Below are positions 426 through 33,770 of a stretch of DNA of 48,092 nucleotides, in pieces. Source of the stretch: a virus; the IMG/VR virus record IMGVR_UViG_3300050500_000285; one strand, 5' to 3'. Below the pieces are notes generated by a model that was given only the letters and a program-made list of their open reading frames with translations, searched no databases and was not told where the DNA came from. Made by a program: the position numbers and the translations under genes. The first letter of the stretch is position 1. Each line of letters begins with the position of its first letter.

Positions 426-435
426 GGAGCGGAGT

Positions 436-876
436 ATGGCGCTGGGAAGCATCATCACCGGGACCATGGCGAATCGCCGGGCCAAGGACGCGCAGAAGGT
501 GGCCGACCGGGCGGCGAAGGACCTGACGCGGCGGATGGACGTCTCGCAGCAGGACATGACCGCCTACCGCCCCGAGGCGGCAGAGGCGCGCATGCGCGCG
601 CTGCGCGCTCGCCTCGGCGTCATGCAGCCGCTCAGCAACATGACGGGCGAGGTCACCGGGAGACCCCAGGCCGAGCTGGCGCCGCTCGGCACGTCGCCGC
701 TGGCGATGCAGCCGCTCCCCTCGCAGCTGAGCACGCTCGGGGCGAATGGGAAGCCGGACGAAACCAAACTGCGGGCGAACGGCATCGACCCCAAGGACCC
801 GAACGCCCAGGCCCTGCTCGAGCAGAAGCTACGCGGCTACGGGTACAACGTGCCGCCGCGTGGAGGGGTGAAGTAG
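436..876 (+). CDS. Hypothetical virion-module protein (146 aa)
   Basis: ATG at 436 is preceded by GAGGAGCGGAG. The track start at 355 overlaps the previous gene and has no RBS. It sits between the nozzle-like gene and the large internal-protein genes. Confidence 0.6.
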   Translation: MALGSIITGTMANRRAKDAQKVADRAAKDLTRRMDVSQQDMTAYRPEAAEARMRALRARLGVMQPLSNMTGEVTGRPQAELAPLGTSPLAMQPLPSQLSTLGANGKPDETKLRANGIDPKDPNAQALLEQKLRGYGYNVPPRGGVK

Positions 877-3057: not shown

Positions 3058-3060
3058 CGC

Positions 3061-4641
3061 ATGCAAATGTTCGACCCGAGCAAGTACGTTCCCGACCTGA
3101 GCGGCATGGCGCTGCAGGGCAACGAACTCATGCTCAAGTCGGCGATGGGCAACACGCAGAACATGAGCCGCGACTTCGCGGCCATGAACGAGCTCGCCGC
3201 CCAGAAGCGTCGCGACAAGCTGCAGCTGCAGGCGGCGATGGCGCAGCTGGCGGAGCGGCAGGCGACGCGGCAGTCGCTCGAGCGGCGGTTCGGCCAGCGT
3301 ATGGGAATGCAGCAGCAGAAGATGACGCAGGACCAGGGCAACGTCCTGTACGAGCGCGACCAGAAGCAGCGCGCCACCGACGCCGACCTGGTGGCCGGCC
3401 TGGTGGGTCCTGCCAGCTCCGGCAACCTGAACGCGCTCGAGGCGGCACGGGCGCAGGCGATCGCGCGCGACCCGTCGCTGTCGGTACAGCTGCCCGGAGA
3501 ATCCAGGGCCAGCGAGCCAACCGGACCCGGGGAAATGCAGTTCTCCGTCGACGAGGCGTATCCGGAGGACGTGAACAAGCTGCGTGTGATGCGCGGCGAT
3601 CGTCCCGTGTACACGTCGCCCGAGGCGAACGTTATGCGCGGTCGCGAGGCCGCGGTGGCCGACCTGCTTGGCCCGAACTCGGGCCCGTGGTCGGCGCGCG
3701 CCGTGGAAGCTGCTGGTGCCGGCGTGACCGGGGAAAAGGCCGCCGAAATCGCCCGCAACGCCTACGAGAAGGAGGAAGGACGCGACACGGCCGAGCGCGT
3801 GGCCGGCGCGCGAATGGGGCAGCAGCGCGAGCTGGCCGGCAAGCAGCTCGAGCGGGAAGAGCCGTACAAGCTCCACGACCGCGTCGAGAAAATGGCAGCC
3901 GCGTACATGCCGGAGGTGCGCAAGATCGACGAGTCAGACCGCGCGTTCGGGCTGGCGGAGCGCCAGCTTGGCGAGGACGCGAACGCGTTCATGCAGAACA
4001 AGGCGATGGCCGGCATTTTGAAGGCGTACACCGGCGCGGCAGCGACCGACGCGGAGCGCAGGCAGGACGCGCAAGCGGCCGGCAAGTGGAACTACTACGA
4101 CAAGCTCATCGGCACGTGGGTGGACGGCGGAGAGCTGCCACCCGACTTCCGGCAACAGGTGGTGTCGATGGTGCAGGACGCGCGCCACGAAAGCGCGCGC
4201 CAGCGCCACGAGCTCGGCATTCGCGCGCGCGACCACGTCTACGCATCGACCAGCTTGCCCATCGGCTCGGCGCGCGAACTCGCCGACTACGGCAACCAGG
4301 CGTATGCGGCCGTGGTTGGACGCGGGCTTTCGGCCGACCAGCTCGACGTGGAGGCCAAGCGCATCGAGGGCGACTTCTCGAAGCGCCGCGGCGGACGCGG
4401 TTCGCCCGTCACCGGCGGAGTGCCCAGCGAGGGGCTTTCTCCGGACGCATTCATTCCGCCGAACGACATGGGGTCAATGGGCGGGTTCGCGGGCGGTTCC
4501 GGCACGCGCGACGCTCTGCCGGTGACGGGCGATGGACGCAGGCCGCCCCCGATTCCCGCGCAGCCGCAGGCGGCGCCCAGCAAGGACGACGAGCTGGACG
4601 ACATCCTGAAGCAGCTGGAGGACGAGTATGCCAAGCCCTGA
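3061..4641 (+). CDS. Internal virion/ejection-type protein (526 aa)
   Basis: ATG at 3061 lies 3 nt after the stop. The protein is charged and predicted helical, with a Pro-rich C-terminal region. The call rests on position in the gene order. Confidence 0.5.
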   Translation: MQMFDPSKYVPDLSGMALQGNELMLKSAMGNTQNMSRDFAAMNELAAQKRRDKLQLQAAMAQLAERQATRQSLERRFGQRMGMQQQKMTQDQGNVLYERDQKQRATDADLVAGLVGPASSGNLNALEAARAQAIARDPSLSVQLPGESRASEPTGPGEMQFSVDEAYPEDVNKLRVMRGDRPVYTSPEANVMRGREAAVADLLGPNSGPWSARAVEAAGAGVTGEKAAEIARNAYEKEEGRDTAERVAGARMGQQRELAGKQLEREEPYKLHDRVEKMAAAYMPEVRKIDESDRAFGLAERQLGEDANAFMQNKAMAGILKAYTGAAATDAERRQDAQAAGKWNYYDKLIGTWVDGGELPPDFRQQVVSMVQDARHESARQRHELGIRARDHVYASTSLPIGSARELADYGNQAYAAVVGRGLSADQLDVEAKRIEGDFSKRRGGRGSPVTGGVPSEGLSPDAFIPPNDMGSMGGFAGGSGTRDALPVTGDGRRPPPIPAQPQAAPSKDDELDDILKQLEDEYAKP

Positions 4642-9405: not shown

Positions 9406-9903
9406 ATGAGCGAAGAACAGAGAGAAGCGAAGCTCGGGGCCATCGCTGCCGGGGAGTTGGCCGGCGAGGAGGCCGCCAAGCGCGTGCTGCGAAACAGCGG
9501 CATCGACGCCGTTGCACGCACCCTTGGCCACAGCGGGATTGGCACGTGCGGGCCCGCGCTGGCCAAGCTCTTTCACGAGCGCTGGGGAGACCAGGGCGAT
9601 GACAACTGGCAGGGCCTGGCGATGGCCGGGCCGCACAAGGACGTCCACCCGTACCACGTGCGAGCCTACGACGAGGCCTTCGCGCGCGGCGCGCGGCGCT
9701 TCTGCGAACAGGCCGTGCGCGGCTTCCTGGACGCCCACCTGGGACTGTCGGCGGAGGGGCCGAACGGCGGCACCATCGCCGACATGGAACGAGCGCTGGA
9801 GGTGCGCAGGCGCAAGTCGGCGATGGGCGAGCGACCGCTTCTGATCTGGGCCTACGAAGCAGGGCACGCGGCGTACAGAAAGTCGGTGGGTCATGGCGAA
9901 TAA
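9406..9903 (+). CDS. Hypothetical protein (165 aa)
   Basis: TAGGAGG RBS 5 nt upstream of ATG 9406. Confidence 0.65.
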   Translation: MSEEQREAKLGAIAAGELAGEEAAKRVLRNSGIDAVARTLGHSGIGTCGPALAKLFHERWGDQGDDNWQGLAMAGPHKDVHPYHVRAYDEAFARGARRFCEQAVRGFLDAHLGLSAEGPNGGTIADMERALEVRRRKSAMGERPLLIWAYEAGHAAYRKSVGHGE

Positions 9904-10306
9904 GGTTTACCCGTCTTGGACGCTCGCCACCGTCAAGGCCGACAAAGACTGGGACACCGCGGACTACCGCGCGTTTCTCGTCTCGAGCGGCTACACCTAC
10001 AACGCGGCCCACGACTTCCTGAATGACATCACCAACATCATCTCTGACGTGGTCGCGCTCGCGAGCGAGACGGTGGCCGCGTTCACGGGCGGCGCCAACC
10101 TGGACGCCGCCGACCTGAGCATCACGAACGTGACCGGCACCGGCGCTGCGATCGTCATCTACGACCACGCGGGCGGCGCAGACAGCGCGCGGGCACTGTG
10201 CGCCTTCATCGACACGGCCAGCGCTGGGCTGCCCACGGGCGCGCTCACCGCCGGCACGGTCACTGTCACCTGGCACGCCAACGGCATCATCACGGTCACG
10301 TCGTAA
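9893..10306 (+). CDS. Hypothetical tail-module protein (137 aa)
   Basis: The start overlaps the previous gene by 11 nt. The sequence is beta-rich. Confidence 0.6.
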   Translation: MANKVYPSWTLATVKADKDWDTADYRAFLVSSGYTYNAAHDFLNDITNIISDVVALASETVAAFTGGANLDAADLSITNVTGTGAAIVIYDHAGGADSARALCAFIDTASAGLPTGALTAGTVTVTWHANGIITVTS

Positions 10307-19918: not shown

Positions 19919-20125
19919 CTAGATGATTTTCCACGCGGAAAGCGTGCTAAGGATGTGGTCGGACGCTCCCGGAAAGCAGGCGCGCGCAACGGCATCCACC
20001 TCCCACACCAGGTGCTTGCGTGGAACGAGCGCGCGACGCCGGACTGCCCACATCGCGAGCGCATCCTGTGTTGGCGCGTACTCGAGCGCTGCGCACCACG
20101 CTCGAAACCGCTCTTGGGGGCTCAT
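19919..20125 (-). CDS. Hypothetical protein (68 aa)
   Basis: ATGA coupling to the upstream gene. Confidence 0.5.
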   Translation of the reverse strand: MSPQERFRAWCAALEYAPTQDALAMWAVRRRALVPRKHLVWEVDAVARACFPGASDHILSTLSAWKII

Positions 20126-20661
20126 GTCGCCCCTGCGAGCTTGAGCGCTCGCACGCCGGTCGCGAAAGTGAGCAAGCGAGACCAGCGCTCGTGAGCCTCA
20201 TCCGCCTCGTACGTCGCGAGGCCGATCGCTGACAGTAGCGAGCCGCTGTTGCGCCGCACGGCTTCGGCGTCGAGTGTCATCAGGTGCCGCACGCGGGCCT
20301 CGGTCCACGCTTCGGCTGCGTCGCGTTCGCGCTCGGCAACTTCGAGTGCGAGGCCTAGCAGGTCTCCGTGCGCACGCGCCTCGCGCACGCGGTCGATCAT
20401 CCACCGATTGGCTTGCTTGCGCACGTTGGCGCCAGGCCCCTTTTGGCCGAAGTGCTTTTTACCGCGCCAGGGTCCGCCGCTCGCGTGGCTGTCCGCTTCG
20501 ATGTAATGCTCGGTGCGATCGAACTGGAAAAGCTCCTGCGCGTCGAGGCCTGCCGCAAACACGTGCCGGGCTTGGCCGTCCGCGTAGACGGCAACCTCGA
20601 TGTCGGTGTGAAGGCGGCCGTCGCTGCCAACCCACAGAAACGTGATGAACTCGGTTTTCAT
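20122..20661 (-). CDS. Hypothetical protein (179 aa)
   Basis: ATG at 20661 with GGAGC 4 nt upstream. The track start at 20694 has no RBS. Confidence 0.6.
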   Translation of the reverse strand: MKTEFITFLWVGSDGRLHTDIEVAVYADGQARHVFAAGLDAQELFQFDRTEHYIEADSHASGGPWRGKKHFGQKGPGANVRKQANRWMIDRVREARAHGDLLGLALEVAERERDAAEAWTEARVRHLMTLDAEAVRRNSGSLLSAIGLATYEADEAHERWSRLLTFATGVRALKLAGAT

Positions 20662-20686
20662 GTCTGCTCCAATCGTTGGCACCATG

Positions 20687-20719
20687 GGACACACGAGACA
20701 GGGGGTCGCTCGTGTGTCC
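20687..20719 (-). promoter_or_regulatory. Intergenic stem-loop with an 11-bp perfect stem (GGACACACGAG / CTCGTGTGTCC, 11-nt loop)
   Basis: The inverted repeat was read directly from the sequence. It lies ~26 nt upstream of the 20661 start and is not followed by a U-tract. Confidence 0.5.
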
Positions 20720-20812
20720 GAGCTGTCTACGATAGTTAGGCATTACCCTACGAACGCATGTTGACCTCCGTTCTCCAGACGCGACGCGCCCCATCAGCGA
20801 GGCACGACAACC

Positions 20813-21661
20813 CTACGCGGCGCGGAGCTCGCGCATACGCTCGGCCAGCACCCACAGCCCGCGGTTCAGGGCCACGTTGCCATCGATGCCGTTCACGGCG
20901 CGCGTGACACCGCGGCGCTTGCGCTCGGTCGTGCGCAATCCGCCGCGCACCAGGTTCTCCTGCACGCGCTGGAACGTGGTCCACAGGCTGTCTCCGCGGT
21001 CTTCGTAGCGCCGGGGCTCCAGCACCTGCGTCACGTTGACGGGCGGCTGCTCTTCGGTGCCGAAGCGCATGGCAATCGCTGCCTCACCAAACACGCGCTG
21101 CTCGCCGTCTGTGAGCTGCAGCCCCTGAAACGACTCACGCAGCGAGTCCACCTTTCCGAAGCTTTGCAGCACGTGGTAGGCGCCTTCGACCACCTCGTCT
21201 AGCACCTTGCCGCTGTGCTTTACCTTGACCGTGACTGCGCTGGTGTGGGGCACCAACATGCCGTTCGCACACACGAAGCGGTACACGCCCGCACTCATCT
21301 CGTACGCGCTCGTGCCGTCGTGGCTGTTGACGAGCACCACTTCGTTGACGGTCTCACCCACGGTCGCTTGGCCGGGGCGAATCATGTGGTCTGGGTGGCG
21401 CAGCTTGAGCATGTGCTTGGTGTACTCGGTCTTACCCGGCAGCCTGCACTTTGCCTGGCACGCGAAGTACGGCTGAAAGCCCTCGCGCATCAGGCCGCGC
21501 AGCACGTCGGCGGTTGGGATGTACGCGTAGCGCGCGCTGCGGCTCTCGTGCGCGGAGGGCGCGAACACGCTCGGGACGAGCTGCATAAGCTCGGTCTCAG
21601 CGATCGGCGCGTTGCGGTAGTGGGTGACAGAGTTGCGGGCGAAGCGGGTGGACAGTTGCAT
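20813..21661 (-). CDS. DUF932 (phage/plasmid-like protein) family protein (282 aa)
   Basis: The hallmark segment is LVNSHDGTSAYEMSAGVYRFVCANGM. ATG at 21661 has GGAGC 8 nt upstream. Confidence 0.7.
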   Translation of the reverse strand: MQLSTRFARNSVTHYRNAPIAETELMQLVPSVFAPSAHESRSARYAYIPTADVLRGLMREGFQPYFACQAKCRLPGKTEYTKHMLKLRHPDHMIRPGQATVGETVNEVVLVNSHDGTSAYEMSAGVYRFVCANGMLVPHTSAVTVKVKHSGKVLDEVVEGAYHVLQSFGKVDSLRESFQGLQLTDGEQRVFGEAAIAMRFGTEEQPPVNVTQVLEPRRYEDRGDSLWTTFQRVQENLVRGGLRTTERKRRGVTRAVNGIDGNVALNRGLWVLAERMRELRAA

Positions 21662-21741
21662 GACGATTGCTCCATTGGTGTGCGTGAAAGTCGACACCCT
21701 ACAGCGCGCGAGCGTACTCGCGTCCTGTCGGCTGGTGACTT

Positions 21742-22290
21742 TCAGACGCTGCTGGCCCATGCCAGCACGGCTGCGATGGACTCGAAGCTGGTCACGGTCC
21801 ATTCACATGACGCGATGTAACCTGACTCGGTGTAGGTGAGATCTGTCTCGGCGCGCTCATGCACTTCGCTGTCTTCGGGGTGGCGGCCCAACTCCTCGCT
21901 TAGTTCCTTGATTGCGTCGTCGTAGTCCGGCTCAGTGAACATGCCGGGAGCCACCTCAAGAAGCACGGCCGCTGCGTCTTCTAGCGCGTCATCGATAGTG
22001 CCGAACGCGAGCACATGCGCGTCTGCGTAGGCGCCGAAGTGGAACACGTGGACGCGCTTGGTGGCGCGCCAGAAGCCATCGCCAGCAACGTGCACCTTGC
22101 GCGGTCCGCTGGACAGACCAGCGTGCGGGTGCAGCTCCTGCACGAGAGCCAGCTCGGTCTCCAGCATGGCCAGGTCGAGTGAGTCAGCGTCCCAGTCCGC
22201 GGTGAGGCCTTTGCCAATGTCTTGCGTCCCGAAGCACAGGGCCAAGCCACGGATGAGCGTGCGCACTTCGCGTGTCATTGGTGTGTACAT
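21742..22290 (-). CDS. Acidic hypothetical protein (182 aa)
   Basis: The start context is GTGATG coupling. The sequence has a clear Asp/Glu excess (TEPDYDDAIKELSEELGRHPEDSEVHERAETD). Confidence 0.6.
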   Translation of the reverse strand: MYTPMTREVRTLIRGLALCFGTQDIGKGLTADWDADSLDLAMLETELALVQELHPHAGLSSGPRKVHVAGDGFWRATKRVHVFHFGAYADAHVLAFGTIDDALEDAAAVLLEVAPGMFTEPDYDDAIKELSEELGRHPEDSEVHERAETDLTYTESGYIASCEWTVTSFESIAAVLAWASSV

Positions 22291-22508
22291 CACCCGCCTG
22301 CCTTTCGAATGAGAGCGTCCAAGTCGTGGGTGGCTTCGACCGCGTCGCGTGCGAGCGCGAACAAGAGGCGCTGCGCCTCCCTGAGCTCATCGCACATGTC
22401 GGATGTGTGAAGCGCGCCGTTCCGCTGGCGCTTGAGCGTGTCGGCCAGGTCGGCCATGTCCTGGTGTAGGCTGCTCGCGAGCTCGCGCAGCGTGTATGCG
22501 CTGGCCAT
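22290..22508 (-). CDS. Hypothetical helical protein (72 aa)
   Basis: GTGATG coupling at both ends. Confidence 0.55.
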   Translation of the reverse strand: MASAYTLRELASSLHQDMADLADTLKRQRNGALHTSDMCDELREAQRLLFALARDAVEATHDLDALIRKAGG

Positions 22509-22705
22509 CACACCACCCCAGCAAGCGCGGCGCGCTCAGGCAGGCGCACCAGGCGGAAGAAGCTCAGCTGCGCCGCATCGCGGCACACGGCAACGTGGTC
22601 CATGGCCCGTGCGTAGGCGCGGTAGTCGATGCGGTCGGCCAAGTAGTCGGCCTCGGCTTGGCCAGCGGCGTCAACGGCTTCCAGTAGCTTCTCTCGTGCG
22701 CTCAT
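22508..22705 (-). CDS. Hypothetical protein (65 aa)
   Basis: The ATG at 22705 forms an ATGA overlap. The longer track ORF (to 22981) extends into the non-coding gap as a Pro/Arg-rich shadow. Confidence 0.55.
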   Translation of the reverse strand: MSAREKLLEAVDAAGQAEADYLADRIDYRAYARAMDHVAVCRDAAQLSFFRLVRLPERAALAGVV

Positions 22706-22881
22706 GACTTGCTCCCCTCGGTGTAGGCCGTCACAAGCGCAGACTGCACCGCGTCCAGGTCGGCCCCTGACAGGCACACTGACGCGCGCTCCAACTGGCT
22801 CTCCAGGTTCGCCAGCGTCCGATTCGCGGCGAGGTTCGCTGCGAGGCGTCGGGCCAGCTTCTGCGCTTGCTTGGACATCAT
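22702..22881 (-). CDS. Hypothetical helical protein (59 aa), first gene after the large non-coding gap
   Basis: The start is ATG ATG at 22881/22878, with GTG 22890 as an alternative. Confidence 0.55.
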   Translation of the reverse strand: MMSKQAQKLARRLAANLAANRTLANLESQLERASVCLSGADLDAVQSALVTAYTEGSKS

Positions 22882-22890
22882 GCCAGGCAC

Positions 22891-23725
22891 CTACTGCAGG
22901 GAGGATGCCATCAGCATCCAGAGCAGAAAGCCCAATGGTGTCGTGAGCGCCCAGCGCAGGCGTGACAGGAAAGGCTGACATCTATGTCATGGGTGGCAAG
23001 CACAGTGGCCGGTGGCAGGGGACAGTCCCCACGGGGCGAGCCCAGGCCGCCGCTGCCTCCCGCGCGTCAGTCCGAGCCCCCCGACAGCACAGAAGAGACA
23101 CGAAGTGGCTCTCTGGCCTCTCTGAGCTCAGAGAGTCATGGTCTCTCGTGCATACGCGCGCGCGCATCGTACGCGCGCGCGTATGCGCAGGGCGCCGCTC
23201 GCGCCGCGGCGCCCCACTGCACGCGGGCCCAACGCGCGTACGCGCGTCCAGGCGCCTCGCTGCGGGCCGCCTGCCGCCACGACGCCGCCCTTGCCCGCCT
23301 CCCCTCCCTCTCGGGCCTCTCCGCTGCCTCTGGGCCTGCCCCGGGAGGCGGGCCCCACCCCCCAGAGCCCACTCTCTCAACTCCCGGGGCACCCCCTCTC
23401 GGACCCCTCAATGAGCACTGCTCTCCCCCTCCGGCGGAGACATGTCCCCCACCCTGCAGTCATGACGCAGCGTGTTGCATGTTTACATGCTGTACTGCGT
23501 CATCGTCCACGCAGTGAGCGCCGCTTGAGATCGCAGCATCCTAGGACGCTGCTCGCGTCCGCTCCCCTCCTCGCCTCCGACATGGGACGCGCGCGCCCGC
23601 ACGCACGCACGTGTTATAAGCAATCACCCCCCATTCCAGGGGGAGCCAGGGGGGCTGTGACCGGGGCCGCCCCACCCCCCCCATTTTTTGAAAACACAGT
23701 AGAGACATGTCTCTGCCGCGTCGTG
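22891..23725. other. 835-bp gene-free segment, palindrome-dense, with a C-rich plus strand at 23281..23460
   Basis: All six-frame ORFs here are Arg/Pro/Ala-rich shadows. At least seven palindromes or inverted repeats were read directly; they are listed in the finding for this region. Confidence 0.7.
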
Positions 23726-24100
23726 TCAAATCGTTGATTTCGCAACCATGCAGACCAGGCCGCGGGCCTGACCGCGCCGTAAGCAGTCCCACGTGCCGCG
23801 ACTCTCGCTGTCCGGAAAGGCCAGCAACCAGTCGTCGGGCGGGTCGGCGAAGTTGACCATCCTCTGGTTGCGGTCGTGGAAGCGCTGCGGCGAGGGGGCG
23901 GCGCTGTTGACGCAGACCTTCAGCGTGTTGCAGCCGAGCTGCACGAAGAACTCGAACGCGCGCTTGTCGACGCTGTCTTCGGTGTCGTCGTTGTCGCCAA
24001 CGATGGCCAGGGATGGGTGGCCGAATCGGTCAACCCACCGGAGAAGCCATGGGCGCAGGGATGGGTGGCCGCGGCGCGATCCGGTGACCACCAGCTTCAT
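23726..24100 (-). CDS. SLOG-superfamily DUF2493-like protein (124 aa)
   Basis: It shows MKLVVTGSR... LAIVGDN...VDKRAFEFFVQLGC ... RFHDRNQRMV ... WLLAFP...SRGTWDCLRRGQARGL, which is collinear with the DUF2493 pattern as I remember it. The Gly-rich nucleotide-binding loop is degenerate. Confidence 0.55.
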   Translation of the reverse strand: MKLVVTGSRRGHPSLRPWLLRWVDRFGHPSLAIVGDNDDTEDSVDKRAFEFFVQLGCNTLKVCVNSAAPSPQRFHDRNQRMVNFADPPDDWLLAFPDSESRGTWDCLRRGQARGLVCMVAKSTI

Positions 24101-24495
24101 GGCTTCGTGTGCAGCCCGCGCTCGACGTCGATGAGCAGGGCGTGTAGCCGGCTCTCAGCGGCGGGACCTCGGGCGTAGGCCAGGATGTCGGAACGCTCGA
24201 GCCGCCGGCCGCGCTGCTCGGCGCCTTCGATGCATGCCTGCTTCAGGGCCACCTCGTCGCGCTCGGCCGCGAGCTCAGCTCGCAGCGCGTCGTGGCGAGC
24301 AAGAAGGTCAGCGCATCCAGCGTGCCTATTCACCAGCTCGACGAAGCGTCCCGCCAGCTGCCACAACTCGCCGGCACTGACGTTGCCGATGAGCCTCGCG
24401 GTCGGTTCCCAGGACGCCGCGCACGCACCAACGTCGGTCGCGATGCGCAGCAACTCCTCGTCACTCGCCATCGCCATCACTTGCGGTTTTTCCAC
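24097..24495 (-). CDS. Hypothetical protein (132 aa)
   Basis: GTG start with GGAGGA ~4 nt upstream. An ATGA overlap links it to the next gene. Confidence 0.6.
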   Translation of the reverse strand: MEKPQVMAMASDEELLRIATDVGACAASWEPTARLIGNVSAGELWQLAGRFVELVNRHAGCADLLARHDALRAELAAERDEVALKQACIEGAEQRGRRLERSDILAYARGPAAESRLHALLIDVERGLHTKP

Positions 24496-24504
24496 GGTTC
24501 CTCC

Positions 24505-24738
24505 TCAGCGCTTGCGCGCGGCCTTGTGCTTGACGCCGAACGTGCAATGCGCGTGCACGGTCAGCTTGGGGTTGTTCTTTGCGTCGAGCGTGATGCTCGC
24601 CGCGTGCACGTACTCGTTCTCGGACTTTCGCCAGGCTGGTAGGTGGCACTTCGGGCACGCCACGGCCACGGGCCACTTGCCGCCGATGACCTGGCCCACG
24701 CGCTTGGGCTCCACGCGGATTTCAACTGGCTCAGTCAT
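24505..24738 (-). CDS. Small Zn-binding-like protein (77 aa)
   Basis: It contains a CPKC...HAHC pattern. The start overlaps the upstream gene by 8 nt. Confidence 0.55.
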   Translation of the reverse strand: MTEPVEIRVEPKRVGQVIGGKWPVAVACPKCHLPAWRKSENEYVHAASITLDAKNNPKLTVHAHCTFGVKHKAARKR

Positions 24739-24976
24739 CGTCCTCGTCGTCCTCGTCGTCCGGCACCGGGCGACCGGAGCGAATCCCACCTATCACGGCG
24801 CGCAGGTCGGTCTCGCTGCGCGAGCGGTAGTACTGGGCCCAGGCCTCGCAGCGATCTCGCTCTTCCTGCACCGCCTCGCCGCGCGCCTTCTCCAGCACCG
24901 CCACGCGCAGCTTGAGCGCATCGTTTTCGGCACGCAGGCGGTCGCGCTCGGCGTACAGCTCCTCCCACGTGCTCAT
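24731..24976 (-). CDS. Coiled-coil protein with a poly-acidic C-terminus (81 aa)
   Basis: The sequence includes LYAERDRLRAENDALKLRVAVLEKA and ends ...PDDEDDEDDD. It has an ATGA overlap. Confidence 0.6.
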   Translation of the reverse strand: MSTWEELYAERDRLRAENDALKLRVAVLEKARGEAVQEERDRCEAWAQYYRSRSETDLRAVIGGIRSGRPVPDDEDDEDDD

Positions 24977-25473
24977 CGCACCAGCTCCAGCGCTGCCATG
25001 AGCCCGGTCCAGGCCACCTCATCGGCGTCACCGGCCTCGTAGCGCACCAAGAGCGTGCACTCGCCGGAGGTGACGGTGTTGGCGCTGCCTGGGCACACGT
25101 CGACCGTCGAGCAGCCCGATGGCGGGCCGTGGCCGACCCACAGCGCATACTCTCCGAGCTCCAGGTTGATGTCGCCCGCTGCCTTGCCCCACGCGTAAGC
25201 GTCGGCCGCGGACATCTCGTTGCACAGATGCACGTACAGCGGAGGACCCTCGATGCGCTCGTGCTCCTCTGCGCAGCCGCAGAGGAGCACCGCGAACAGT
25301 ATAGCGAGCTGCCGGAAGCGCTCGGCCCTGCCTTGCAGGTGAGCCTTGAGCATCGTCACGTGCGGCTGGCAATCATCCGCCGCCTCCTGGAACGCCTCGG
25401 CCGACTTTAGCAGCACGTCGCGCAGGTCCGCGCGGTCCAGGGCGCTCAGCTCAACAGTTTTCTTGTCGCTCAT
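24973..25473 (-). CDS. Hypothetical protein (166 aa) containing an internal lipoprotein-type signal (RFRQLAILFAVLLCGC)
   Basis: ATG at 25473. An in-frame Met (MLKAHLQGRAERFRQLAILFAVLLCGC) could initiate a lipoprotein form. Confidence 0.5.
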   Translation of the reverse strand: MSDKKTVELSALDRADLRDVLLKSAEAFQEAADDCQPHVTMLKAHLQGRAERFRQLAILFAVLLCGCAEEHERIEGPPLYVHLCNEMSAADAYAWGKAAGDINLELGEYALWVGHGPPSGCSTVDVCPGSANTVTSGECTLLVRYEAGDADEVAWTGLMAALELVR

Positions 25474-25643
25474 CGCATCAACCTCCCAGTTCGAATCTCG
25501 CGCTCCGCCTCGACCAGCCGCGCCGCCTCCAGGTAGCCGTTGCATGGTGCGCAGGACAAACCGAACCGCATTTCCCAGTCGGAATCGTCGAGGTCGACCG
25601 GAATGCTTCGCTCGAAGTGGGCTCGCGTCAGTTTTCGTCTCAT
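25470..25643 (-). CDS. Hypothetical protein (57 aa)
   Basis: ATGA overlaps at both ends. Confidence 0.5.
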   Translation of the reverse strand: MRRKLTRAHFERSIPVDLDDSDWEMRFGLSCAPCNGYLEAARLVEAEREIRTGRLMR

Positions 25644-25882
25644 AACCCACCTCCCGGGCCGACCAGCGACCACTCCAAATCCCTCAAACCAGGCCTGCGC
25701 TCGAGCATGCCTTCTCGGATACGCTCCACGTCCTCACGTGTCTCGGAACCGCCCCAGACCTCCCATGGGCCGCCTGGGCGCCGAAGGCAAATCACCCAGT
25801 GACGCTCGCGCCCGCGGCCCTTCGCCACGTAGCTCTGCCGAAGGGCGCTGCACGCACGCTCGTCCTCAGAAGCGTCGCTCAT
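25640..25882 (-). CDS. Hypothetical protein (80 aa)
   Basis: The ATG at 25882 shares one base with the stop of the TM micro-ORF (TGATG). Confidence 0.55.
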   Translation of the reverse strand: MSDASEDERACSALRQSYVAKGRGRERHWVICLRRPGGPWEVWGGSETREDVERIREGMLERRPGLRDLEWSLVGPGGGL

Positions 25883-25998
25883 CAACGCCTCCCAAGCCAA
25901 AGCGCAATGCCGAGAAGGCACAGCGCCACCACCAGGCAGCCGAGAATCAGGACCAGCAGCACCGCCAGCGTGATTGCGCCCCATGCCACCCTGGTCAC
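25882..25998 (-). CDS. 38-aa single-pass membrane micro-protein (VTRVAWGAITLAVLLVLILGCLVVALCLLGIALWLGRR)
   Basis: This ORF is not in the ORF track. It starts at a GTGA-coupled GTG. Third-position G/C is about 30 of 38 codons, whereas the overlapping track frame (MGRNHAGG...) is T-rich at third positions. It has a clean hydrophobic helix with a basic end. Confidence 0.5.
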   Translation of the reverse strand: MTRVAWGAITLAVLLVLILGCLVVALCLLGIALWLGRR

Positions 25999-26141
25999 CG
26001 CGGCCTCGCGCGCACCTGCCGAAGCGCAGCGCGCTGGAAAAAGTTGCGACCAGTGCGGCGCTTGCTGCCGTAGCGAAGCGTCCTGCGCCCAGTCTCGAAC
26101 TGCCTAATGGTGCGCTGAATCCACCGCGTAACGCTCGCCAT
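25995..26141 (-). CDS. 48-aa arginine-rich micro-protein
   Basis: This ORF is not in the ORF track. ATG at 26141 lies 3 nt after the RHH stop, with GGAGGG 8 nt upstream. Third-position G/C is about 37 of 48 codons. Confidence 0.5.
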   Translation of the reverse strand: MASVTRWIQRTIRQFETGRRTLRYGSKRRTGRNFFQRAALRQVRARPR

Positions 26142-26144
26142 GGC

Positions 26145-26324
26145 TCAGCCCTCCGCCGCAGTGCGCTTCTCGCGATCCTTGCGCAGCGCCTCGAGCCGGT
26201 TGAACGCGTACATCACGAGCTCGTCGGTCGCCTCGCTCAGCGACAGCGAGCGCTCTTTCGCGCGCGTAGCCACCACACGATGAGCCTCGGGTCCAATCCT
26301 CACCACTCGTCGATCCGTTGCCAT
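26145..26324 (-). CDS. Ribbon-helix-helix (Arc/MetJ/CopG-like) DNA-binding protein (59 aa)
   Basis: The sequence MATDRRVVRIGPEAHRVVATRAKERSLSLSEATDELVMYAFNRLE fits a strand-helix-helix layout. GGAGG lies 5 nt upstream of the ATG. Confidence 0.55.
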   Translation of the reverse strand: MATDRRVVRIGPEAHRVVATRAKERSLSLSEATDELVMYAFNRLEALRKDREKRTAAEG

Positions 26325-26344
26325 GTGCACCTCCAGATCGTTAC

Positions 26345-27481
26345 CTACCGCGTCGCGCCACTGGATGCAAATAGAATCCTCGCCGCGATGCCTGGCTGGT
26401 CGAACGACAGTGGGTACCCGACGGTGTGCTTTGCCGCCTGAATGCAGGCGAGCGTCGTATTGAGCCCGGCGTTGGTCACCACGACGTCGGCGCGCGCGAT
26501 CAGCGCGTAATGCGGCGCCCAGGGCACCACCAGCACGTCTTTGGCCCCGTAGCCATCCTCGCCGAACAGCTTCAAGCGCACGGCCGCGTACAGCTCGCGA
26601 ACGCTCACCAAAGCCCCATCGGCGAGGCCGTTGCCACCGGTCGAGACGACCACCTGCGCGCCGGTCTTGGCCGCCGCCTGGACGGCGTTGCAAATCGTGC
26701 TCACGGCCGCCTGGTCGTGCGCAATCGTGCCCATGCACACGTACACCAGCCCCCGCTCGGGCTCGAGCCAGAACCACGGAAACGGGACTTCTTCCTGGTC
26801 GCGCGTCACCCACGCTCCCGTGGCCAGGAACGGCGCCTCCCACGCGCGCGGGAAGTCGAGCCAGAAAGGCTGCTGAGCGACCTGCGCGCGGCCCACGTAC
26901 ACGCTGTTGCCATCGGCGTCGTGCAGCGGGATTCCGTGCGCCTCGCGGTAGCGCTCGAGATCGCTCCACACGTGTCGGAAGACCCACGCGAAGTAGTTCC
27001 AGCCAAGGCGGTCGCGCAGCTTCCCGGCCCAGCCGCTCGCCGGCTGCCAGGCAAAGATGGGCGGCGGAATGGCCGGGTCGTAGGACATCGACAACGCCGC
27101 GCAAAACGTCGCGTACGGCATCCCCCGCCGCGCGGCCACGAGGCAGGCGCCCTGCAGCGTCTCGTCGATCACGAGCGCATCCAGCTCGAGCTCGCCGCAC
27201 AGAAGGTCCAGGGCACCTCCAAGGAGCTGCGCGTTCGCCGCGCGCAGATACGTCGCCAGCGCTCGCAGCGCGGCCAGGCCGGACTCTTTCCCGAGCTCGG
27301 CGCGCCCCGGCGCCTCGGTCGCATAAAGCGCATGGCCGACCCAGAGCTTAGATGCGCGCTCATGCCCCGGCGGACGCGTCACGAGTATCGCCTGGTGTCC
27401 GAGATGGCCGAGCTCGCGCGCCAGCTCGATGGCTGGGTTCATGTGCCCCATCAGCTCTGGAACGACGACTCCGATTCTCAC
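26345..27481 (-). CDS. GT1-family (GT-B fold, MGT/UDP-glycosyltransferase-like) glycosyltransferase (378 aa)
   Basis: The N-terminus RIGVVVPELMGHMNPAIELARELGHLGHQAILVT shows the G-H-x-N-P motif. The C-terminal donor-binding region is VVVTNAGLNTTLACIQAAKHTVGYPLSFDQPGIAARI. The start at 27481 is set by a GTGA overlap. Confidence 0.75.
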   Translation of the reverse strand: MRIGVVVPELMGHMNPAIELARELGHLGHQAILVTRPPGHERASKLWVGHALYATEAPGRAELGKESGLAALRALATYLRAANAQLLGGALDLLCGELELDALVIDETLQGACLVAARRGMPYATFCAALSMSYDPAIPPPIFAWQPASGWAGKLRDRLGWNYFAWVFRHVWSDLERYREAHGIPLHDADGNSVYVGRAQVAQQPFWLDFPRAWEAPFLATGAWVTRDQEEVPFPWFWLEPERGLVYVCMGTIAHDQAAVSTICNAVQAAAKTGAQVVVSTGGNGLADGALVSVRELYAAVRLKLFGEDGYGAKDVLVVPWAPHYALIARADVVVTNAGLNTTLACIQAAKHTVGYPLSFDQPGIAARILFASSGATR

Positions 27482-27879
27482 GGCCGCACCGTGCCTTTCG
27501 GCCACCACACAAGCTCCCAGGTGGACTTGTCGAGGTCAGCATCCCAGCCGGCCTCACGAACGGCGCTCAGCACGTGCCTACGCGCAATAGACCATGCCTC
27601 CGCTCTTTCCGACGCTGACGGGAGCTCTTCGTGTACCTCGCGCGCGTCGTCTTCTTGCTGGGTAAGACTGGAGACTGATTGGCTGTACCTCTCGTTGAGC
27701 CGCGGTCGAAACTCGCGAGCAAGACACATCCCGCTATCGCCCAGAACCATCTTGCTGGCGATGGCGGACCGGATGCGCGCCTCGAACTCGATGGCCTTTA
27801 TGCTGATGCGCGTCTCCCTGGCTGCCCACAGCTGAGCTGGAGACGGGAGGCGATCGAATCCGCGCCCGTCGACGCTCAT
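27478..27879 (-). CDS. Hypothetical protein (133 aa)
   Basis: ATG at 27879 with a 4-nt overlap to the upstream gene. The longer track ORF is an Arg/Gly-rich shadow. Confidence 0.55.
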   Translation of the reverse strand: MSVDGRGFDRLPSPAQLWAARETRISIKAIEFEARIRSAIASKMVLGDSGMCLAREFRPRLNERYSQSVSSLTQQEDDAREVHEELPSASERAEAWSIARRHVLSAVREAGWDADLDKSTWELVWWPKGTVRP

Positions 27880-28936: not shown

Positions 28937-29353
28937 TCATCCCTCCAGCACTTCCAGGTGTTCATTCCTGGAAGCAAAACCAAGGCGCTCGGCCATCTTG
29001 CGCAGGCCCACGCCACCACGGCGCCGGTCCACCACCATCACGGGGCGCACGCCGCCCGCGGTCACGACGGCGTACTCTTTTCCTACCAACATCAGAGCTT
29101 CAACCGCGGCGTGCGCGAGCGATGGCGGTGCCGAGTGGCTTGTGACAAGCCACTCGAACATCAGCAGCGGCCAGTGCTCGATGACGCCGACGCTAGCGAC
29201 GTAAGCGTGCCCGTGCCGAATCGAGAGCGCCGCGACGCTTGGATGTGGCTCACGCGGAATGAGCACGCCACGGCACTCGGCCGCGTATTTGGCGTATTCC
29301 CAATACGGAACACCGTCGACAATCAGGAAATCGCCCCGCAGAATCGGCTTCAT
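28937..29353 (-). CDS. Hypothetical protein (138 aa), weak GNAT-like motif
   Basis: ATG at 29353 has GGAG 8 nt upstream. The segment VVDRRRGGVGLRKMAERLGF resembles GNAT motif A (R-x-x-G-x-G). It is the first gene after a 190-nt gap. Confidence 0.3.
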   Translation of the reverse strand: MKPILRGDFLIVDGVPYWEYAKYAAECRGVLIPREPHPSVAALSIRHGHAYVASVGVIEHWPLLMFEWLVTSHSAPPSLAHAAVEALMLVGKEYAVVTAGGVRPVMVVDRRRGGVGLRKMAERLGFASRNEHLEVLEG

Positions 29354-30406: not shown

Positions 30407-30480
30407 GCCCAGAAGCTAGACTGGATTCTAATCGGATGCAAGCGCTTGACTGGCTATTTGGATTCTATTATCGTCCAGGC
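30407..30480. promoter_or_regulatory. Divergent early/late control region, AT-richer than its surroundings
   Basis: It holds a TGGATTCTA direct repeat (30422..30430 and 30459..30467; the reverse complement contains TAGAAT). TTGACT at 30446..30451 is followed after 17 nt by TATCGT at 30469..30474. It lies between the two divergent gene blocks. Confidence 0.45.
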
Positions 30481-30648
30481 ATGCGTGAACCGGAGCGAGC
30501 CACGAAGAACCTGAGCGGCGTAAAGTGCACGCCGACCACGAAGGCGTCGATGATGCGGCTCTGGCGCAAGGAAGCGGCGCCGCAGGAGTCGTTCGGTGCC
30601 TGGGCGCGCCGCAAGCTGCTCACGCCGCAAGCCGCGGTGCAGCCATGA
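30481..30648 (+). CDS. Small basic protein (55 aa), possible RHH-like regulator
   Basis: The ATG at 30481 lies ~7 nt after the -10-like hexamer, so the transcript may be leaderless. The track start at 30436 is an alternative. The sequence LSGVKCTPTTKASMMRLWRKEA..SFGAWARRKLL fits a strand-helix-helix layout. Confidence 0.4.
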   Translation: MREPERATKNLSGVKCTPTTKASMMRLWRKEAAPQESFGAWARRKLLTPQAAVQP

Positions 30649-31647: not shown

Positions 31648-31695
31648 ACCACCTGAAGACGGGGTGGGGTGCCTTGGTTGGCAAGAGGAGCAAGC

Positions 31696-32091
31696 ATGAC
31701 GAGAATCATCAGGGACCACCAGGTCAACGAGTGCAATGAGGCCATCACGATCAGCGCGGATGAGCCCGACGCGAAGTACGGCAATGCGAGTCACTGCTAC
31801 GTTCTTTCGATCACCCGCCGCTTTCCGGACACGGAGCAGGGCGAGCCGTCGTCGGAGACGTGGGGAATCCAGTTCCAGCGCGGTCCCATCAAGGAGGTTG
31901 GAGTCAACGGCCTCACGAACGAGGCGCTGCTCGCGGTGCTCATCGACCGGATGCGCGGGTTCCAGTCCGGCCCGTTCTCGTGCCAGGAAAACGCCATCGT
32001 GTTGACGCACCTTCAGGATGCCCAGCACTGGCTGTTGCATCGCACGCGGGAGCGCATGAAGCGAGGGGTGGAGGGTACGAACAAGGTCTAG
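31696..32091 (+). CDS. Conserved-looking small phage protein of unknown function (131 aa)
   Basis: GAGGAG lies 6 nt upstream of ATG 31696. The C-terminal part (FQRGPIKEVGVNGLTNEALLAVLIDRMRGFQSGPFSCQENAIVLTHLQDAQHWLLHRTRERMKRGVEGT) resembles a recurrent phage family that I cannot name. Confidence 0.65.
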   Translation: MTRIIRDHQVNECNEAITISADEPDAKYGNASHCYVLSITRRFPDTEQGEPSSETWGIQFQRGPIKEVGVNGLTNEALLAVLIDRMRGFQSGPFSCQENAIVLTHLQDAQHWLLHRTRERMKRGVEGTNKV

Positions 32092-33748: not shown

Positions 33749-33770
33749 GGTGCGTAAACCTTTACGCACC
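33749..33770. promoter_or_regulatory. Palindromic site 2: GGTGCGTAAA-CC-TTTACGCACC (10-bp arms)
   Basis: Read directly from the sequence. Confidence 0.7.

Follow-up and report, generated by a model that had tools for sequence, protein, structure and literature searches.

A conserved, protein-free and hairpin-dense module at the head of the recombination operon in a lineage of uncultured phages

Results

A protein-free segment upstream of the recombination operon

The window, i.e. the whole 48,092-nt stretch of viral DNA analysed here (IMG/VR record IMGVR_UViG_3300050500_000285), contains between two leftward genes an 835-bp segment (22891-23725) that is the largest gap in a crude GC3-based gene call, in agreement with an earlier note, made from the letters alone, that had described it as the largest non-coding stretch of the genome. 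The operon downstream of it comprises small genes, a DUF932 gene and the genes for a RecE-like exonuclease, an ERF annealing protein, an SF2 helicase and an HNH protein. When the ORFs of the 12.7-35.5 kb region were scanned against Pfam and PHROG, the helicase, ERF, exonuclease and HNH proteins turned up, and no initiator (a weak negative, most of the proteins being orphans); the earlier remark that no polymerase, primase or initiator is recognisable stands, but a helicase and an exonuclease/ERF pair are encoded immediately downstream. The 124-aa gene on the right flank is a mobile passenger, since its relatives occur in unrelated phages that lack the non-coding segment. Three other neighbouring proteins had no match in IMG/VR, a 386-aa protein found only an unrelated 28% match in GTDB, and PDB sequence searches with the 435-, 328- and 124-aa proteins returned no match. 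Two identical contigs (48082 and 48106 bp) start at different positions, corresponding to ~29951 and ~24393 of the window, and thus there are no fixed hairpin ends, as expected of a circular or permuted genome. A telomere, cos or att site was rejected on the basis of these differing starts, the lack of protelomerase and integrase domains among the scanned proteins and the remote position of the only tRNA prediction.

The related phages were recovered by way of the "shadow ORF" of the segment, a 199-aa ORF on the plus strand (23138-23737) that is called by a public gene caller, and then by way of the flanking 65-aa gene. This yielded seven lineages, all from metagenomes, hence eight including the window. 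In four of them (L008, 74.8% identity; L009; L011; L017, 72%) BLASTN and MAFFT revealed homology to a whole module of ~22887-23745 at 72-75% identity, which we refer to as Type I and which at its right end includes the final seven codons of the 124-aa gene. The remaining three lineages (Type II) carry a different sequence with the same architecture, adjoining a divergent gene for a protein with an N-terminal ribbon-helix-helix (RHH). The segment itself contains no genuine ORF, as the earlier note had held: the three-phase GC periodicity of both flanks collapses at ~22950-23700, substitutions relative to one relative are even over the three codon phases (65/70/71), and the length of 60 out of 67 alignment gaps is not divisible by three. 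The protein homology check proposed in that note returned only the same DNA in relatives with the reading frame not kept; identity is lower in amino acids (50%) than in nucleotides (75%), the frame is maintained only within a 28-residue stretch, and an 11-nt deletion in L011 relative to the other lineages leads to a stop after 14 codons of this stretch.

Searches for known elements were negative. Rfam (Rfam 15) gave no match across the whole window at gathering score and, at E <= 10 on 22600-24000, only four chance-level matches to eukaryotic families far under their thresholds. BLAST of the segment against annotated phages (near and distant) and plasmids (distant) returned no match, and exact and degenerate DNA patterns of blocks C, D and E were unmatched in IMG/VR, JGI metagenomes and GTDB genomes. 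By contrast with the genome mean of 3.3 short-loop inverted repeats (arm >=6, loop <=8) per 835 bp, the segment harbours 14, the highest count among 473 windows of the 48-kb genome, and is therefore palindrome-dense, as had been claimed. All of the palindromic elements listed in the earlier note are indeed where it had placed them, with one arm length revised: the alternating-CG hairpin has 15-bp arms (23150-23186) around its 7-nt spacer, not 14-bp arms. The features of the module are the following:

22887-23745: whole Type I module; homology starts at 22886/22887 and ends at ~23745
22887-22990, minus strand: block A, promoter-proximal, adjoins the leftward operon at its first gene
22895-22910, minus strand: TGGCATCCTCCCTGCA, TGGC-N8-TGC with the spacing of a sigma-54 -24/-12 pair, then TAGG and the start codon
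22903-22919: hairpin GGATGC-loop-GCATCC, arms kept, loop catca, cagta or cactg
22976-22989: palindrome TGACAT-NN-ATGTCA, then GCCTTTCCTGTCAC on the minus strand
23018-23030: box 1, degenerate in the window (GGGGACAGTCCCC), GAGACATGTCCCC in L008 and L011
23045-23125: block B, ~80 nt, essentially identical in the window, L008 and L009
23087-23117, plus strand: hairpin B, three-tier stem with purine mismatches and a cGAAg tip
23118-23135: perfect 18-bp palindrome CTCTCTGAGCTCAGAGAG, specific to the lineage of the window
23150-23186: alternating-CG hairpin with 15-bp arms, arms conserved, loops all different
23190-23214: hairpin GGGCGCCGC-7-GCGGCGCCC, a different stem at the same position in each lineage examined
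23232-23247: perfect 16-bp palindrome ACGCGCGTACGCGCGT, core CGCGTACGCG(CG) in all Type I
23281-23460, minus strand: tract that is C-rich on the plus and G-rich on the minus strand, indel-rich and poorly conserved in sequence, conserved in skew
23436-23449: box 2, GGAGACATGTCCCC, core invariant in all Type I
23462-23545: block D
23462-23515: nested hairpin ATGACGCAG..GCATGT-TT-ACATGC..CTGCGTCAT (23462-23503), plus a mutually exclusive hairpin
23533-23552: hairpin GCAGCATCCTA / TAGGA(C/T)GCTGC, GCAGCATCCTAGGACGCTGC in the window with one mismatched pair
23597-23715: block E
23627-23643: hairpin CCCCC-ATTCCA-GGGGG, invariant in Type I
23649-23689, plus strand: G/C-rich hairpin followed by ATTTTTT, intrinsic-terminator-like
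23701-23714: box 3, AGAGACATGTCTCT, GGGACATGTCCC in relatives

Stem-loops are conserved by compensatory change

What is conserved among the lineages is a set of stem-loops with compensatory changes, the GGAC(A/G)TGTCC boxes, block B, the strand skew, an A/T run and the TGGC-N8-TGC element. Conservation in blocks B, D and E exceeds that of the adjoining coding DNA; the central 250 nt are poorly conserved and carry many indels. Across five sequences, 24 base pairs are changed on both sides, compared to 10.4 +/- 2.4 in shuffled controls (0 of 500 reaching the observed value) and 5-8 in slid controls. As stems are kept while their loops vary in sequence and in length (7 to 33 nt in one case, 0 to 9-11 nt in another), selection appears to act on single-strand structure rather than on duplex sites alone. 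The expectation that the palindromes would recur in relatives was thus borne out for many hairpins and boxes, but not for the 18-bp palindrome, which is perfect and in place in the window, with its right half missing in L008, L009 and L011 and partial in L017.

The individual hairpins follow this pattern to different extents. The loops of the alternating-CG hairpin read catcgta, tgccct, atcata and atgccctc, and L011 carries a 33-nt loop insertion together with a compensatory C-G to T-A change. The stem at 23190-23214 is GCCCCG/CGGGGC in L008 and CGGCGC/GCGCCG in L009, and the L008 counterpart of the 16-bp palindrome is the 14-bp CGCGCGTACGCGCG. In the nested hairpin region, 17 pairs are near-invariant across five lineages, and the same DNA can form a mutually exclusive hairpin, ACTGCGT-loop-ACGCAGT, with a loop of 8 to 10 nt. 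The element at 23533-23552 is a perfect 20-bp palindrome in L009, bears loop inserts of 9 nt in L008 and 11 nt in L017, and is replaced by a different palindrome in L011.

The identity of block B is 0.97-1.00 in 30-column bins, exceeding the conservation of the coding flanks, and hairpin B takes the same dot-bracket shape, or nearly so, in six different sequences, Type II included, with three to four compensatory pairs. (A covariance model of this hairpin was dropped, MAFFT having aligned the six hairpins inconsistently with their structure.) The tip, CACGAAGTG at 23099-23107 in the window, is (C/A/T)CGAAG(G/T/A), with cGAAg capping the hairpin in seven of the eight lineages and the exact form CCGAAGG in L011, L017 and L019. 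Hairpin B hence falls under the definition of a DNA mini-hairpin given in a review (PMC13037366), namely a stem capped by GNA or GNNA and closed by C-G, of the GCGAAGC or CCGAAGG type; CCGAAGG is the mini-hairpin of RSF1010 ssiA, and related tips occur at the G4 origin and the N4 hairpin promoters (PMC13037366). About ten cGAAg mini-hairpins are found elsewhere in the window by chance.

A palindromic box is repeated in both module types

Each module, whether Type I or Type II, contains three to four copies of a palindromic box, GGAC(A/G)TGTCC, which is concentrated in the module in every lineage and keeps its offsets within Type I. The copies are dispersed, at spacings of ~265 and 415 bp. The earlier note had spotted that the core of box 3 recurs, and GAGACATGTC is found again at 23437-23446, within box 2; the only exact copies of the word GACATGTC in 48 kb are those of boxes 2 and 3. 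In relatives the symmetry of box 3 is maintained by a paired A-T to G-C change. No box-binding regulator was identified in the window, and a search for direct repeats revealed only two-copy, chance-like pairs and no iteron array.

Strand composition is likewise conserved. On the plus strand, 23281-23460 holds 92 C, 41 G and 14 runs of C3+, where the earlier note had counted at least ten such runs, and this is the most negative 180-nt GC skew of the window (rank 1 of 2396). The G-rich skew of the sense strand is kept in all relatives without sequence conservation, and L017 has a tandem duplication within the tract. Of the G-quadruplex potential that had been proposed, the conserved skew holds up but canonical G-quadruplex motifs are not conserved. 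A leftward transcript of 23281-23460 would be a G-rich RNA opposite a C-rich template, as in an R-loop origin. The cumulative GC skew tracks gene orientation and shows no switch at the module.

Candidate transcription signals

Block A is the only part of the module that shares BLAST similarity with Type II lineages. Its TGGC-N8-TGC element was compared with the sigma-54 consensus (GG-N10-GC core at -24/-12, TGGCAC-N5-TTGC): TGGC, TGC and TAGG are invariant in the six aligned lineages with variable bases in between (TGGCATCCTTGCTGCG in L009), and the core conforms in seven to all eight lineages. A strict sigma-54-type pattern has its sole match in the window here; looser matches are common in this GC-rich genome. 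In the window, L011 and L015 the predicted start would fall ~3 nt upstream of the ATG, with the loss of the AGGTG ribosome-binding site, and no Sigma54_activat domain was present among the scanned proteins. The TGACAT-CT-ATGTCA palindrome of this block is present as described earlier and kept in six of the eight lineages, but it is replaced in L011 and disrupted in L009, its right arm having been lost at a homing-endonuclease insertion.

Strict and relaxed sigma-70 promoter scans of both strands uncovered nothing conserved in the module; a weak candidate consists of AAAAAT as -10 and a 19-nt spacer to GACA. At 30446-30489, good early promoters of the sigma-70 type are arranged back to back. 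Of the six lineages folded, two (the window and L008) form a good terminator-like structure at 23649-23689, and the remaining four a non-canonical one. All eight lineages retain its T-run, although that of L008 is interrupted (ATATTTTCT); on the minus strand it reads CAAAAAAT, a possible -10 element. On the minus strand, one weak terminator-like match (23646-23626) coincides with the CCCCC-ATTCCA-GGGGG hairpin and is absent in Type II. A plus-strand small RNA extending from TGTTATAAG to the T-run was considered and found no support, the candidate -10 being lost in L011 and L017. Folding of either strand is better than that of shuffled sequences (z = -6.5 for plus, -4.9 for minus), and G-U pairs outnumber A-C mismatches ~5:1 in structures from either strand, such that this ratio is uninformative for strand assignment; one 15-bp hairpin of Type II can form on the minus strand only by way of three G-U pairs. 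DnaA boxes with <=1 mismatch are absent from the window, and exact ones from every lineage. AT content peaks at 0.92 over 12 nt and 0.57 over 40 nt, and the conserved A/T run exceeds the genome's 99th percentile for 40-nt AT content.

The module keeps its position at the head of the operon

Seven of the eight lineages, six of them as shown by gene calls, have the module directly upstream of an operon that starts with or contains the 65-aa gene, and this position holds whatever genes adjoin its other side. The exception is L009, where an inserted HNH gene parts block A and the operon from blocks B-E. Both flanks are mosaic, with genes that come and go. The three Type II lineages carry the divergent RHH gene on the opposite flank, which requires that the module itself contain a promoter for the leftward operon; an RHH gene divergent from the module is the classic layout of a repressor and its operator. 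No homologue of the Type II RHH protein was found in Type I. An origin of the Type II layout by inversion was rejected, the right-flank genes of Type II having no homologues in the window.

Discussion

The 835-bp gap is a real protein-free module, the core of a putative cis-acting control module of ~860 bp (22887-23745) that probably gates the recombination genes or starts replication and for which no known family matches. The earlier note had left the choice between an origin, a hub of regulator sites and a long non-coding RNA; the premise common to these, a selected functional non-coding element, is backed by a unit conserved in four lineages, an architecture conserved in three, compensatory changes in hairpins and a repeated box. 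Among these, the genomic context favours a role in transcription control or as a leader slightly over an origin, because the module always heads the recombination operon and Type II lies beside a divergent RHH gene. Because this uncultured, high-GC phage lineage encodes almost exclusively orphan proteins, a conserved cis-element offers a rare handle on its regulation or replication, and with ~860 bp, mapped hairpins, a repeated 10-12-bp box and two natural variants, with and without the RHH gene, the module is a testable object.

We tentatively prefer, at a probability of roughly 40%, a promoter/operator region combined with a long, structured, G-rich leader that heads the recombination/replication operon. 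We infer that the module is transcribed leftward: transcription would start at its right end or arrive from the upstream early genes, and only after ~700-800 nt of untranslated, G-rich and hairpin-dense leader would it reach the operon. A dimeric regulator common to all lineages may bind the three to four GGAC(A/G)TGTCC palindromes and so decide whether transcription starts or passes. The stem-loops could act in the nascent RNA, in termination/antitermination, processing or stability; the bias of G over C and the dense structure may shield the long untranslated RNA from Rho, and the TGGC-N8-TGC/TAGG element by the first gene would serve as a proximal promoter or translation-start signal. If the module is a leader or a regulatory RNA, it would represent a new large structured phage RNA.

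Control regions of phage early operons (lambda PL-nutL-tL1 before exo/bet, HK022 put RNA, P22 immI) likewise lie between early and recombination genes and possess operator-type palindromes and hairpins in an untranslated stretch that transcription must cross. In the leftward operon of lambda the recombination genes lie beyond a terminator, and the layout of the present genome, with early promoters at 30446-30489, recalls it. Type II, with its divergent RHH gene, also resembles P22 immI with the RHH repressors Arc and Mnt and the sar RNA. However, the module is three to five times longer than these regions, contains no recognised sigma-70 promoter, boxA/boxB or put-like sequence, is accompanied by no N-like or Q-like protein and has no similarity to any annotated phage.

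Several observations count against a leader. No sigma-70-like promoter is conserved inside the module on either strand, the promoter candidates are weak, and a sigma-54-like start would remove the Shine-Dalgarno sequence. The mismatches of hairpin B and its cGAAg tip are on the plus strand, antisense to the operon, and better-than-shuffled folding and the ~5:1 ratio are found for both strands alike. A length of 700-800 bp far exceeds what an operator region needs, the window offers no identified regulator for the boxes, and the minus-strand terminator-like site is weak.

The main rival, a replication origin, we regard as possible but less probable. The boxes would bind an initiator and the hairpins would be single-strand initiation or primosome signals or cruciforms, short A/T tracts would unwind, and the leftward G-rich transcript may form a ColE1-like R-loop primer. 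The module is the sole large non-coding, repeat- and structure-rich region and heads the helicase/recombination module; its box is repeated three to four times and kept in Types I and II despite divergence of the other sequence, its hairpins are selected for structure, and an endonuclease insertion and a tandem duplication have been tolerated, as would be expected of separable cis elements. The lack of an ordinary promoter and the A/T run point the same way, and the most extreme, conserved G/C skew of the genome fits a stable RNA:DNA hybrid. Yet no initiator, primase or polymerase was recognised, the A/T tracts measure just 12-20 bp, and the cumulative GC skew does not switch here. In contrast to iteron-type theta origins (lambda ori, plasmid oriV), the module has dispersed palindromes in place of tandem direct iterons, and neither DnaA boxes (none with <=1 mismatch in the window) nor an adjacent initiator gene.

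The closest models for an origin agree with the module only in part. The ColE1-type origin (RNA II/RNA I, R-loop, downstream primosome assembly site) is also a non-coding unit of several hundred nt with a highly structured, G-rich RNA on a C-rich template, and the module may possess a short antisense element with a terminator-like hairpin at its end; but no pair of promoters was identified, conservation of the G-rich tract is limited to its composition, and the carrier is a 48-kb dsDNA phage with its own helicase. RSF1010 ssiA, the complementary-strand origins of G4, St-1 and alpha3 and the N4 hairpin promoters (PMC13037366) share with hairpin B the cGAAg-capped stem, which here is conserved by covariation, and the tip equals the ssiA mini-hairpin in three lineages; no RepB'-type primase or N4-type polymerase is encoded, however, the motif is short with chance copies elsewhere, and while a leftward R-loop would displace the minus strand, it is the plus strand that bears the mini-hairpin features. 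The target palindromes of N15 telRL-type protelomerases have a TACGCGCGTA core. Alternating-CG palindromes are found in the module as well (the L008 palindrome, the 15-bp CG arms), but no protelomerase gene was found and the CG arms are split by variable loops. If the module is an origin, it would show how replication starts in a phage without a recognisable initiator.

A stand-alone structured RNA gene of several hundred nt, of an undescribed family and perhaps replacing in Type I the RHH cassette of Type II, is in our view unlikely. It would account for covarying stems beside near-invariant blocks that are more conserved than the neighbouring genes, for the T-run conserved after a G/C-rich structure on the plus strand, for the purine mismatches and GAA loop of hairpin B on this strand and for the lack in Type I of an RHH homologue. 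Against it stand the lack of a promoter on either strand, with the TGTTATAAG candidate -10 missing in two lineages, a terminator-like fold that is non-canonical in four of six, a C-rich plus-strand RNA that would be a good Rho substrate, the indel-rich, poorly conserved central 250 nt and the negative Rfam searches, with nothing credible even at E <= 10. The GOLLD and ROOL RNAs (Rfam) are similar in size class, phage carrier and the presence of many stems beside conserved blocks, but the module has no Rfam match and no neighbouring tRNA cluster; unlike in these RNAs, palindromic DNA boxes and perfect symmetry of stems at the DNA level suggest that it also functions as DNA. A more speculative and still less probable variant holds that Types I and II are alternative control cassettes at one locus, where Type II would employ the RHH repressor and Type I the RNA or R-loop of blocks B-E as regulator or primer of the recombination/helicase operon, docking at the cGAAg hairpin and the GGACATGTCC boxes. 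Such an arrangement would mean that a tailed dsDNA phage uses RNA as the basis of an immunity or priming cassette.

Non-functional DNA, i.e. the remnant of a gene or a scar left by recombination at a mosaic junction, with palindromes arising from high GC and alternating-CG slippage, is very improbable: the mosaic flanks, the HNH gene inserted in L009, the poorly conserved and duplication-prone central part and the lineage-specific nature of some palindromes would fit, but blocks B, D and E surpass adjacent coding DNA in conservation, compensatory changes are in excess, Type II keeps the architecture without alignable sequence, and the inverted-repeat density is the highest in the genome. A missed protein-coding gene such as the 199-aa ORF would fit the long ORFs that are open in several frames on both strands and the database "homologues" of this ORF, but it can practically be dismissed, because these "homologues" are the same DNA translated, with even substitutions, frame-breaking gaps and no GC3 periodicity. 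Gene callers thus report a false 199-aa protein in the segment, which proved useful as a probe, as it found the homologous non-coding DNA in protein databases.

The segment is non-coding and the most palindrome-dense stretch of the genome

Inspection of the segment at 22891-23725, which an earlier note had described as a gene-free, palindrome-dense and strand-skewed gap, located each of the reported palindromes where it had been placed, except that the arms of the alternating CG hairpin are 15 bp rather than 14 bp long. The segment holds 14 short-loop inverted repeats, where an 835-bp stretch of the genome has 3.3 on average, and ranks first among 473 windows; the proposed strand skew at 23281-23460 is borne out by a GC skew of -0.38, the most negative of any 180-nt stretch (rank 1 of 2396). 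The predicted folding of either strand is far more stable than that of dinucleotide shuffles (z = -6.5 and -4.9), as expected from the palindromes.

Several lines of evidence demonstrate that the segment is indeed non-coding. First, the phase-specific GC pattern of the flanks vanishes from ~22950 to 23700. Second, substitutions relative to one relative number 65, 70 and 71 in the three codon phases. Third, 60 of 67 gap runs in a five-way alignment are not a multiple of three. Long ORFs, several of them overlapping, are open on both strands, as is usual in GC-rich DNA, where stop codons are scarce. Public annotation called a 199-aa ORF at 23138-23737 (+), which we rejected as a real gene on the basis that its amino-acid identity (50%) is below the nucleotide identity (75%) and that its frame is held across a single 28-codon stretch only, corresponding to the nested hairpin.

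Related phages carry the module in two types

Direct DNA searches with the segment recovered no relatives, and probing with the 124-aa gene of the right flank [23726-24100 (-)] led to unrelated phages lacking the segment. By contrast with these probes, the false 199-aa protein retrieved the metagenome phage lineage L008, because gene callers repeat the same error in relatives; a profile search thereafter yielded L009, and the conserved 65-aa gene (22508-22705) yielded L011-L014, L015, L016, L017 and L019. The window, L008, L009, L011 and L017 constitute Type I, with homology that starts at 22886/22887 and ends at ~23745 (72-75% identity); the entire conserved non-coding unit (the module, 22887-23745) is common to L008 and L017, and most of it is found in L009 and L011. 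Type II comprises L015, L016 and L019, which are mutually homologous and whose far-side gene is divergent, encoding a product with an N-terminal ribbon-helix-helix (RHH) domain; this product has no homologue in the window or at Type I loci. In L015 and L016 (reverse complements, positions 5376 and 5454) an extra GGAC(A/G)TGTCC box lies ~200 bp outside the module, within the RHH gene.

Elements of the module (plus-strand coordinates)
22887-22990: block A, the sole part common to Type II and the window by BLAST
23018-23030: box 1, of the GGAC(A/G)TGTCC type but degenerate in the window
23045-23125: block B, essentially identical across three lineages
23087-23117: hairpin B
23186-23430: central tract, indel-rich and only 50-63% identical
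23432-23545: block D, more conserved than the coding flanks, as is block B
23436-23449: box 2
23597-23715: block E, likewise more conserved than the coding flanks
23701-23714: box 3

The flanks are mosaic: a 59-aa gene is missing in L008 and L009, and additional small genes separate the module from the 65-aa gene in L011 and L017. In L009 a 144-aa HNH homing endonuclease with an HTH domain [361-795 (-)] is inserted between block A and the remaining module, exactly at the TGACAT..ATGTCA palindrome, whose right arm is destroyed. The non-coding stretch of L008 is ~450 bp longer (1955-2411); this extension has two copies of a 57-bp direct repeat (2098-2153, 2312-2368) and additional palindromes, among them one at 2175-2210 (11-bp arms). 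At the right end, 23715-23745 overlaps the last seven codons (AKSTI-stop) of the 124-aa gene, is conserved even in relatives with a different or no upstream gene, and includes a match to the IHF consensus (AATCAACGATTTG, minus strand 23739-23727) that is also present in L009.

Stems and skew are maintained while sequences diverge

Comparison of the palindromes across relatives revealed that many stems are kept; the perfect 18-bp palindrome is not among them, being missing in L008, L009 and L011 and partial in L017.

Inverted repeats compared across lineages
GGATGC/GCATCC: stem kept, loop changes
CG hairpin: 15-bp arms kept, four different loops; L011 has a 33-nt insertion and a C-G to T-A double change
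Hairpin after the CG arms: stem differs in each of window, L008 and L009
ACTGCG/CGCAGT: stem kept, loop changes
GCAGCATCCTA/TAGGATGCTGC: stem kept, loops of 0, 9 or 11 nt

Both sides are changed in 24 of 128 local pairs (five sequences), compared to 10.4 ± 2.4 in shuffles (0 of 500 reaching the observed value) and 5-8 in slid controls, an excess that is supportive of structure but not proof, since the alignment used for counting had also supplied the structure. The three-tier shape of hairpin B is unchanged, or nearly so, across six different sequences, all Type II members included. Read on the plus strand, the hairpin has a cGAAg tip in all except L016 and A/G mismatches in most, and it looks purposeful on that strand. 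On the other hand, the consensus fold energy is -214 kcal/mol for the minus versus -173 kcal/mol for the plus strand, and one Type II hairpin depends on three G-U pairs when read on the minus strand. Structures derived from either strand give equal ratios of G-U pairs to A-C mismatches.

The C-over-G skew of the central tract is held in all eight lineages. The G-quadruplex potential once ascribed to this region is not conserved in the form of canonical motifs: the window has one, which is without counterpart at the equivalent position of the relatives. In L017 (reverse complement of 2316-3217) the C-rich tract carries a ~45-bp tandem duplication, CGCTACAG(G/C)GGGCGCCAGCAGCCCGCACGGCCCCT..., inside the skewed region, showing that the tract grows by slippage.

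A repeated box predicts a dimeric DNA-binding protein

Every lineage has three to four copies of GGAC(A/G)TGTCC in its module and few elsewhere, with offsets conserved in Type I (about 150-175, 560 and 805-825). The segment contains both copies of the exact word GACATGTC present in the 48 kb, and box 3 exhibits a symmetric double substitution (AGAGACATGTCTCT to GGGACATGTCCC). Such a pattern is the signature of a predicted dimeric DNA-binding protein. Since the box is kept in both types, the putative binder would be either a host factor or a phage protein that is itself conserved; the phage proteins scanned yielded no candidate.

Candidate promoters and terminators

No conserved sigma-70-like promoter was found in the module on either strand, and a candidate -10 (TGTTATAAG) is altered in L009, L011 and L017. 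At the right end a G/C-rich structure precedes ATTTTTT, a T-run that all eight lineages keep, with an interruption in L008; among the six lineages folded, only the window and L008 have a canonical terminator fold in front of it. On the minus strand the T-run reads CAAAAAAT, and its AAAAAT, which in all Type I lineages is 19 nt away from the box 3 GACA, could serve as a -10 element. Beside the first downstream gene, TGGC-N8-TGC, with the spacing of a sigma-54 core, is present in all lineages with variable intervening bases (TAGG is next in the six aligned), but in three lineages the start predicted from it would lie 3 nt ahead of the ATG. Sigma-54-like matches are abundant in this GC-rich genome, and no enhancer-binding protein was found among the proteins scanned. 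Because the other flank of Type II is transcribed away from the module, a leftward promoter that our scans did not locate must, judging from this gene arrangement, lie inside the Type II module.

A possible control module or replication origin

The module is clearly real and selected, and it matches none of the families tested (Rfam, iteron origins, telomere sites, coding genes). Its constant place heading the recombination/helicase operon, the operator-like boxes and, in Type II, the divergent RHH gene suggest that it controls transcription and includes a long structured leader. On the basis of established Rho biology, a sense transcript rich in G and dense in hairpins would be protected from Rho; this would account for a skew that is kept where the sequence itself is not.

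A replication origin, as the earlier note had proposed, ranks close behind. The segment is the sole large structured non-coding region next to the helicase module, its boxes could be initiator sites, and in three lineages the cGAAg tip of hairpin B matches CCGAAGG exactly, a type of DNA mini-hairpin described at RSF1010 ssiA, G4-type origins and N4 hairpin promoters (PMC13037366). However, such mini-hairpins occur about ten times by chance in the window, and neither DnaA boxes nor a long A/T tract, an iteron array or an initiator were found. In mode of working, the module is closest to a phage early-operon control region or to a transcription-activated origin.

Genomic surroundings

The window is a 48-kb tailed-phage genome (66% GC) with almost no similarity to annotated phages. 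Its 20001-27000 interval is identical in two ENA metagenome contigs (48082 and 48106 bp), whose start positions differ along the genome, a pattern that a circular or permuted genome would produce. The segment is located within a leftward gene block (12.7-30.4 kb), and downstream of it lie small ORFs and genes for a DUF932 protein, a RecE-like exonuclease, an ERF annealing protein, a DUF2786 protein, an SF2 helicase and an HNH protein. The following promoter pair is probably the main early one:

30446-30489: back-to-back sigma-70-like promoters (rightward, TTGACT-17-TATCGT; leftward, TTCACG-16-TAGAAT) in the gap that separates the leftward from the rightward gene block

The nearest ERF relatives (~40% identity) belong to Pseudomonas, Stenotrophomonas and Xanthomonas phages. 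In combination with the type of promoter, this affiliation suggests that the host is a proteobacterium.

Other long inverted repeats are found at 25261-25290, 29132-29156 and 33749-33770 (arms of 13, 12 and 10 bp), the last being terminator-like on the minus strand. ARAGORN predicted a tRNA-Ala (GGC) at 939-1013 (+), inside the start of a 725-aa ORF (880-3057); either it is a false positive or the ORF begins further downstream. A 386-aa protein [26345-27505 (-)], without a Pfam match, resembles by eye a GT-B/GT1-type glycosyltransferase with an N-terminal GVVVPELMGHMNP motif, is 67% identical in L009 and has a sole GTDB match (28%, a Solirubrobacteraceae MAG); its target for modification may be DNA or a surface structure. 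Finally, a 140-aa protein [31669-32091 (+)] shows a weak match to the Acb2/Tad1 hairpin domain (E = 5e-4), also on record for its L009 homologue (9762-10127), and may act as an anti-CBASS or anti-Thoeris sponge.
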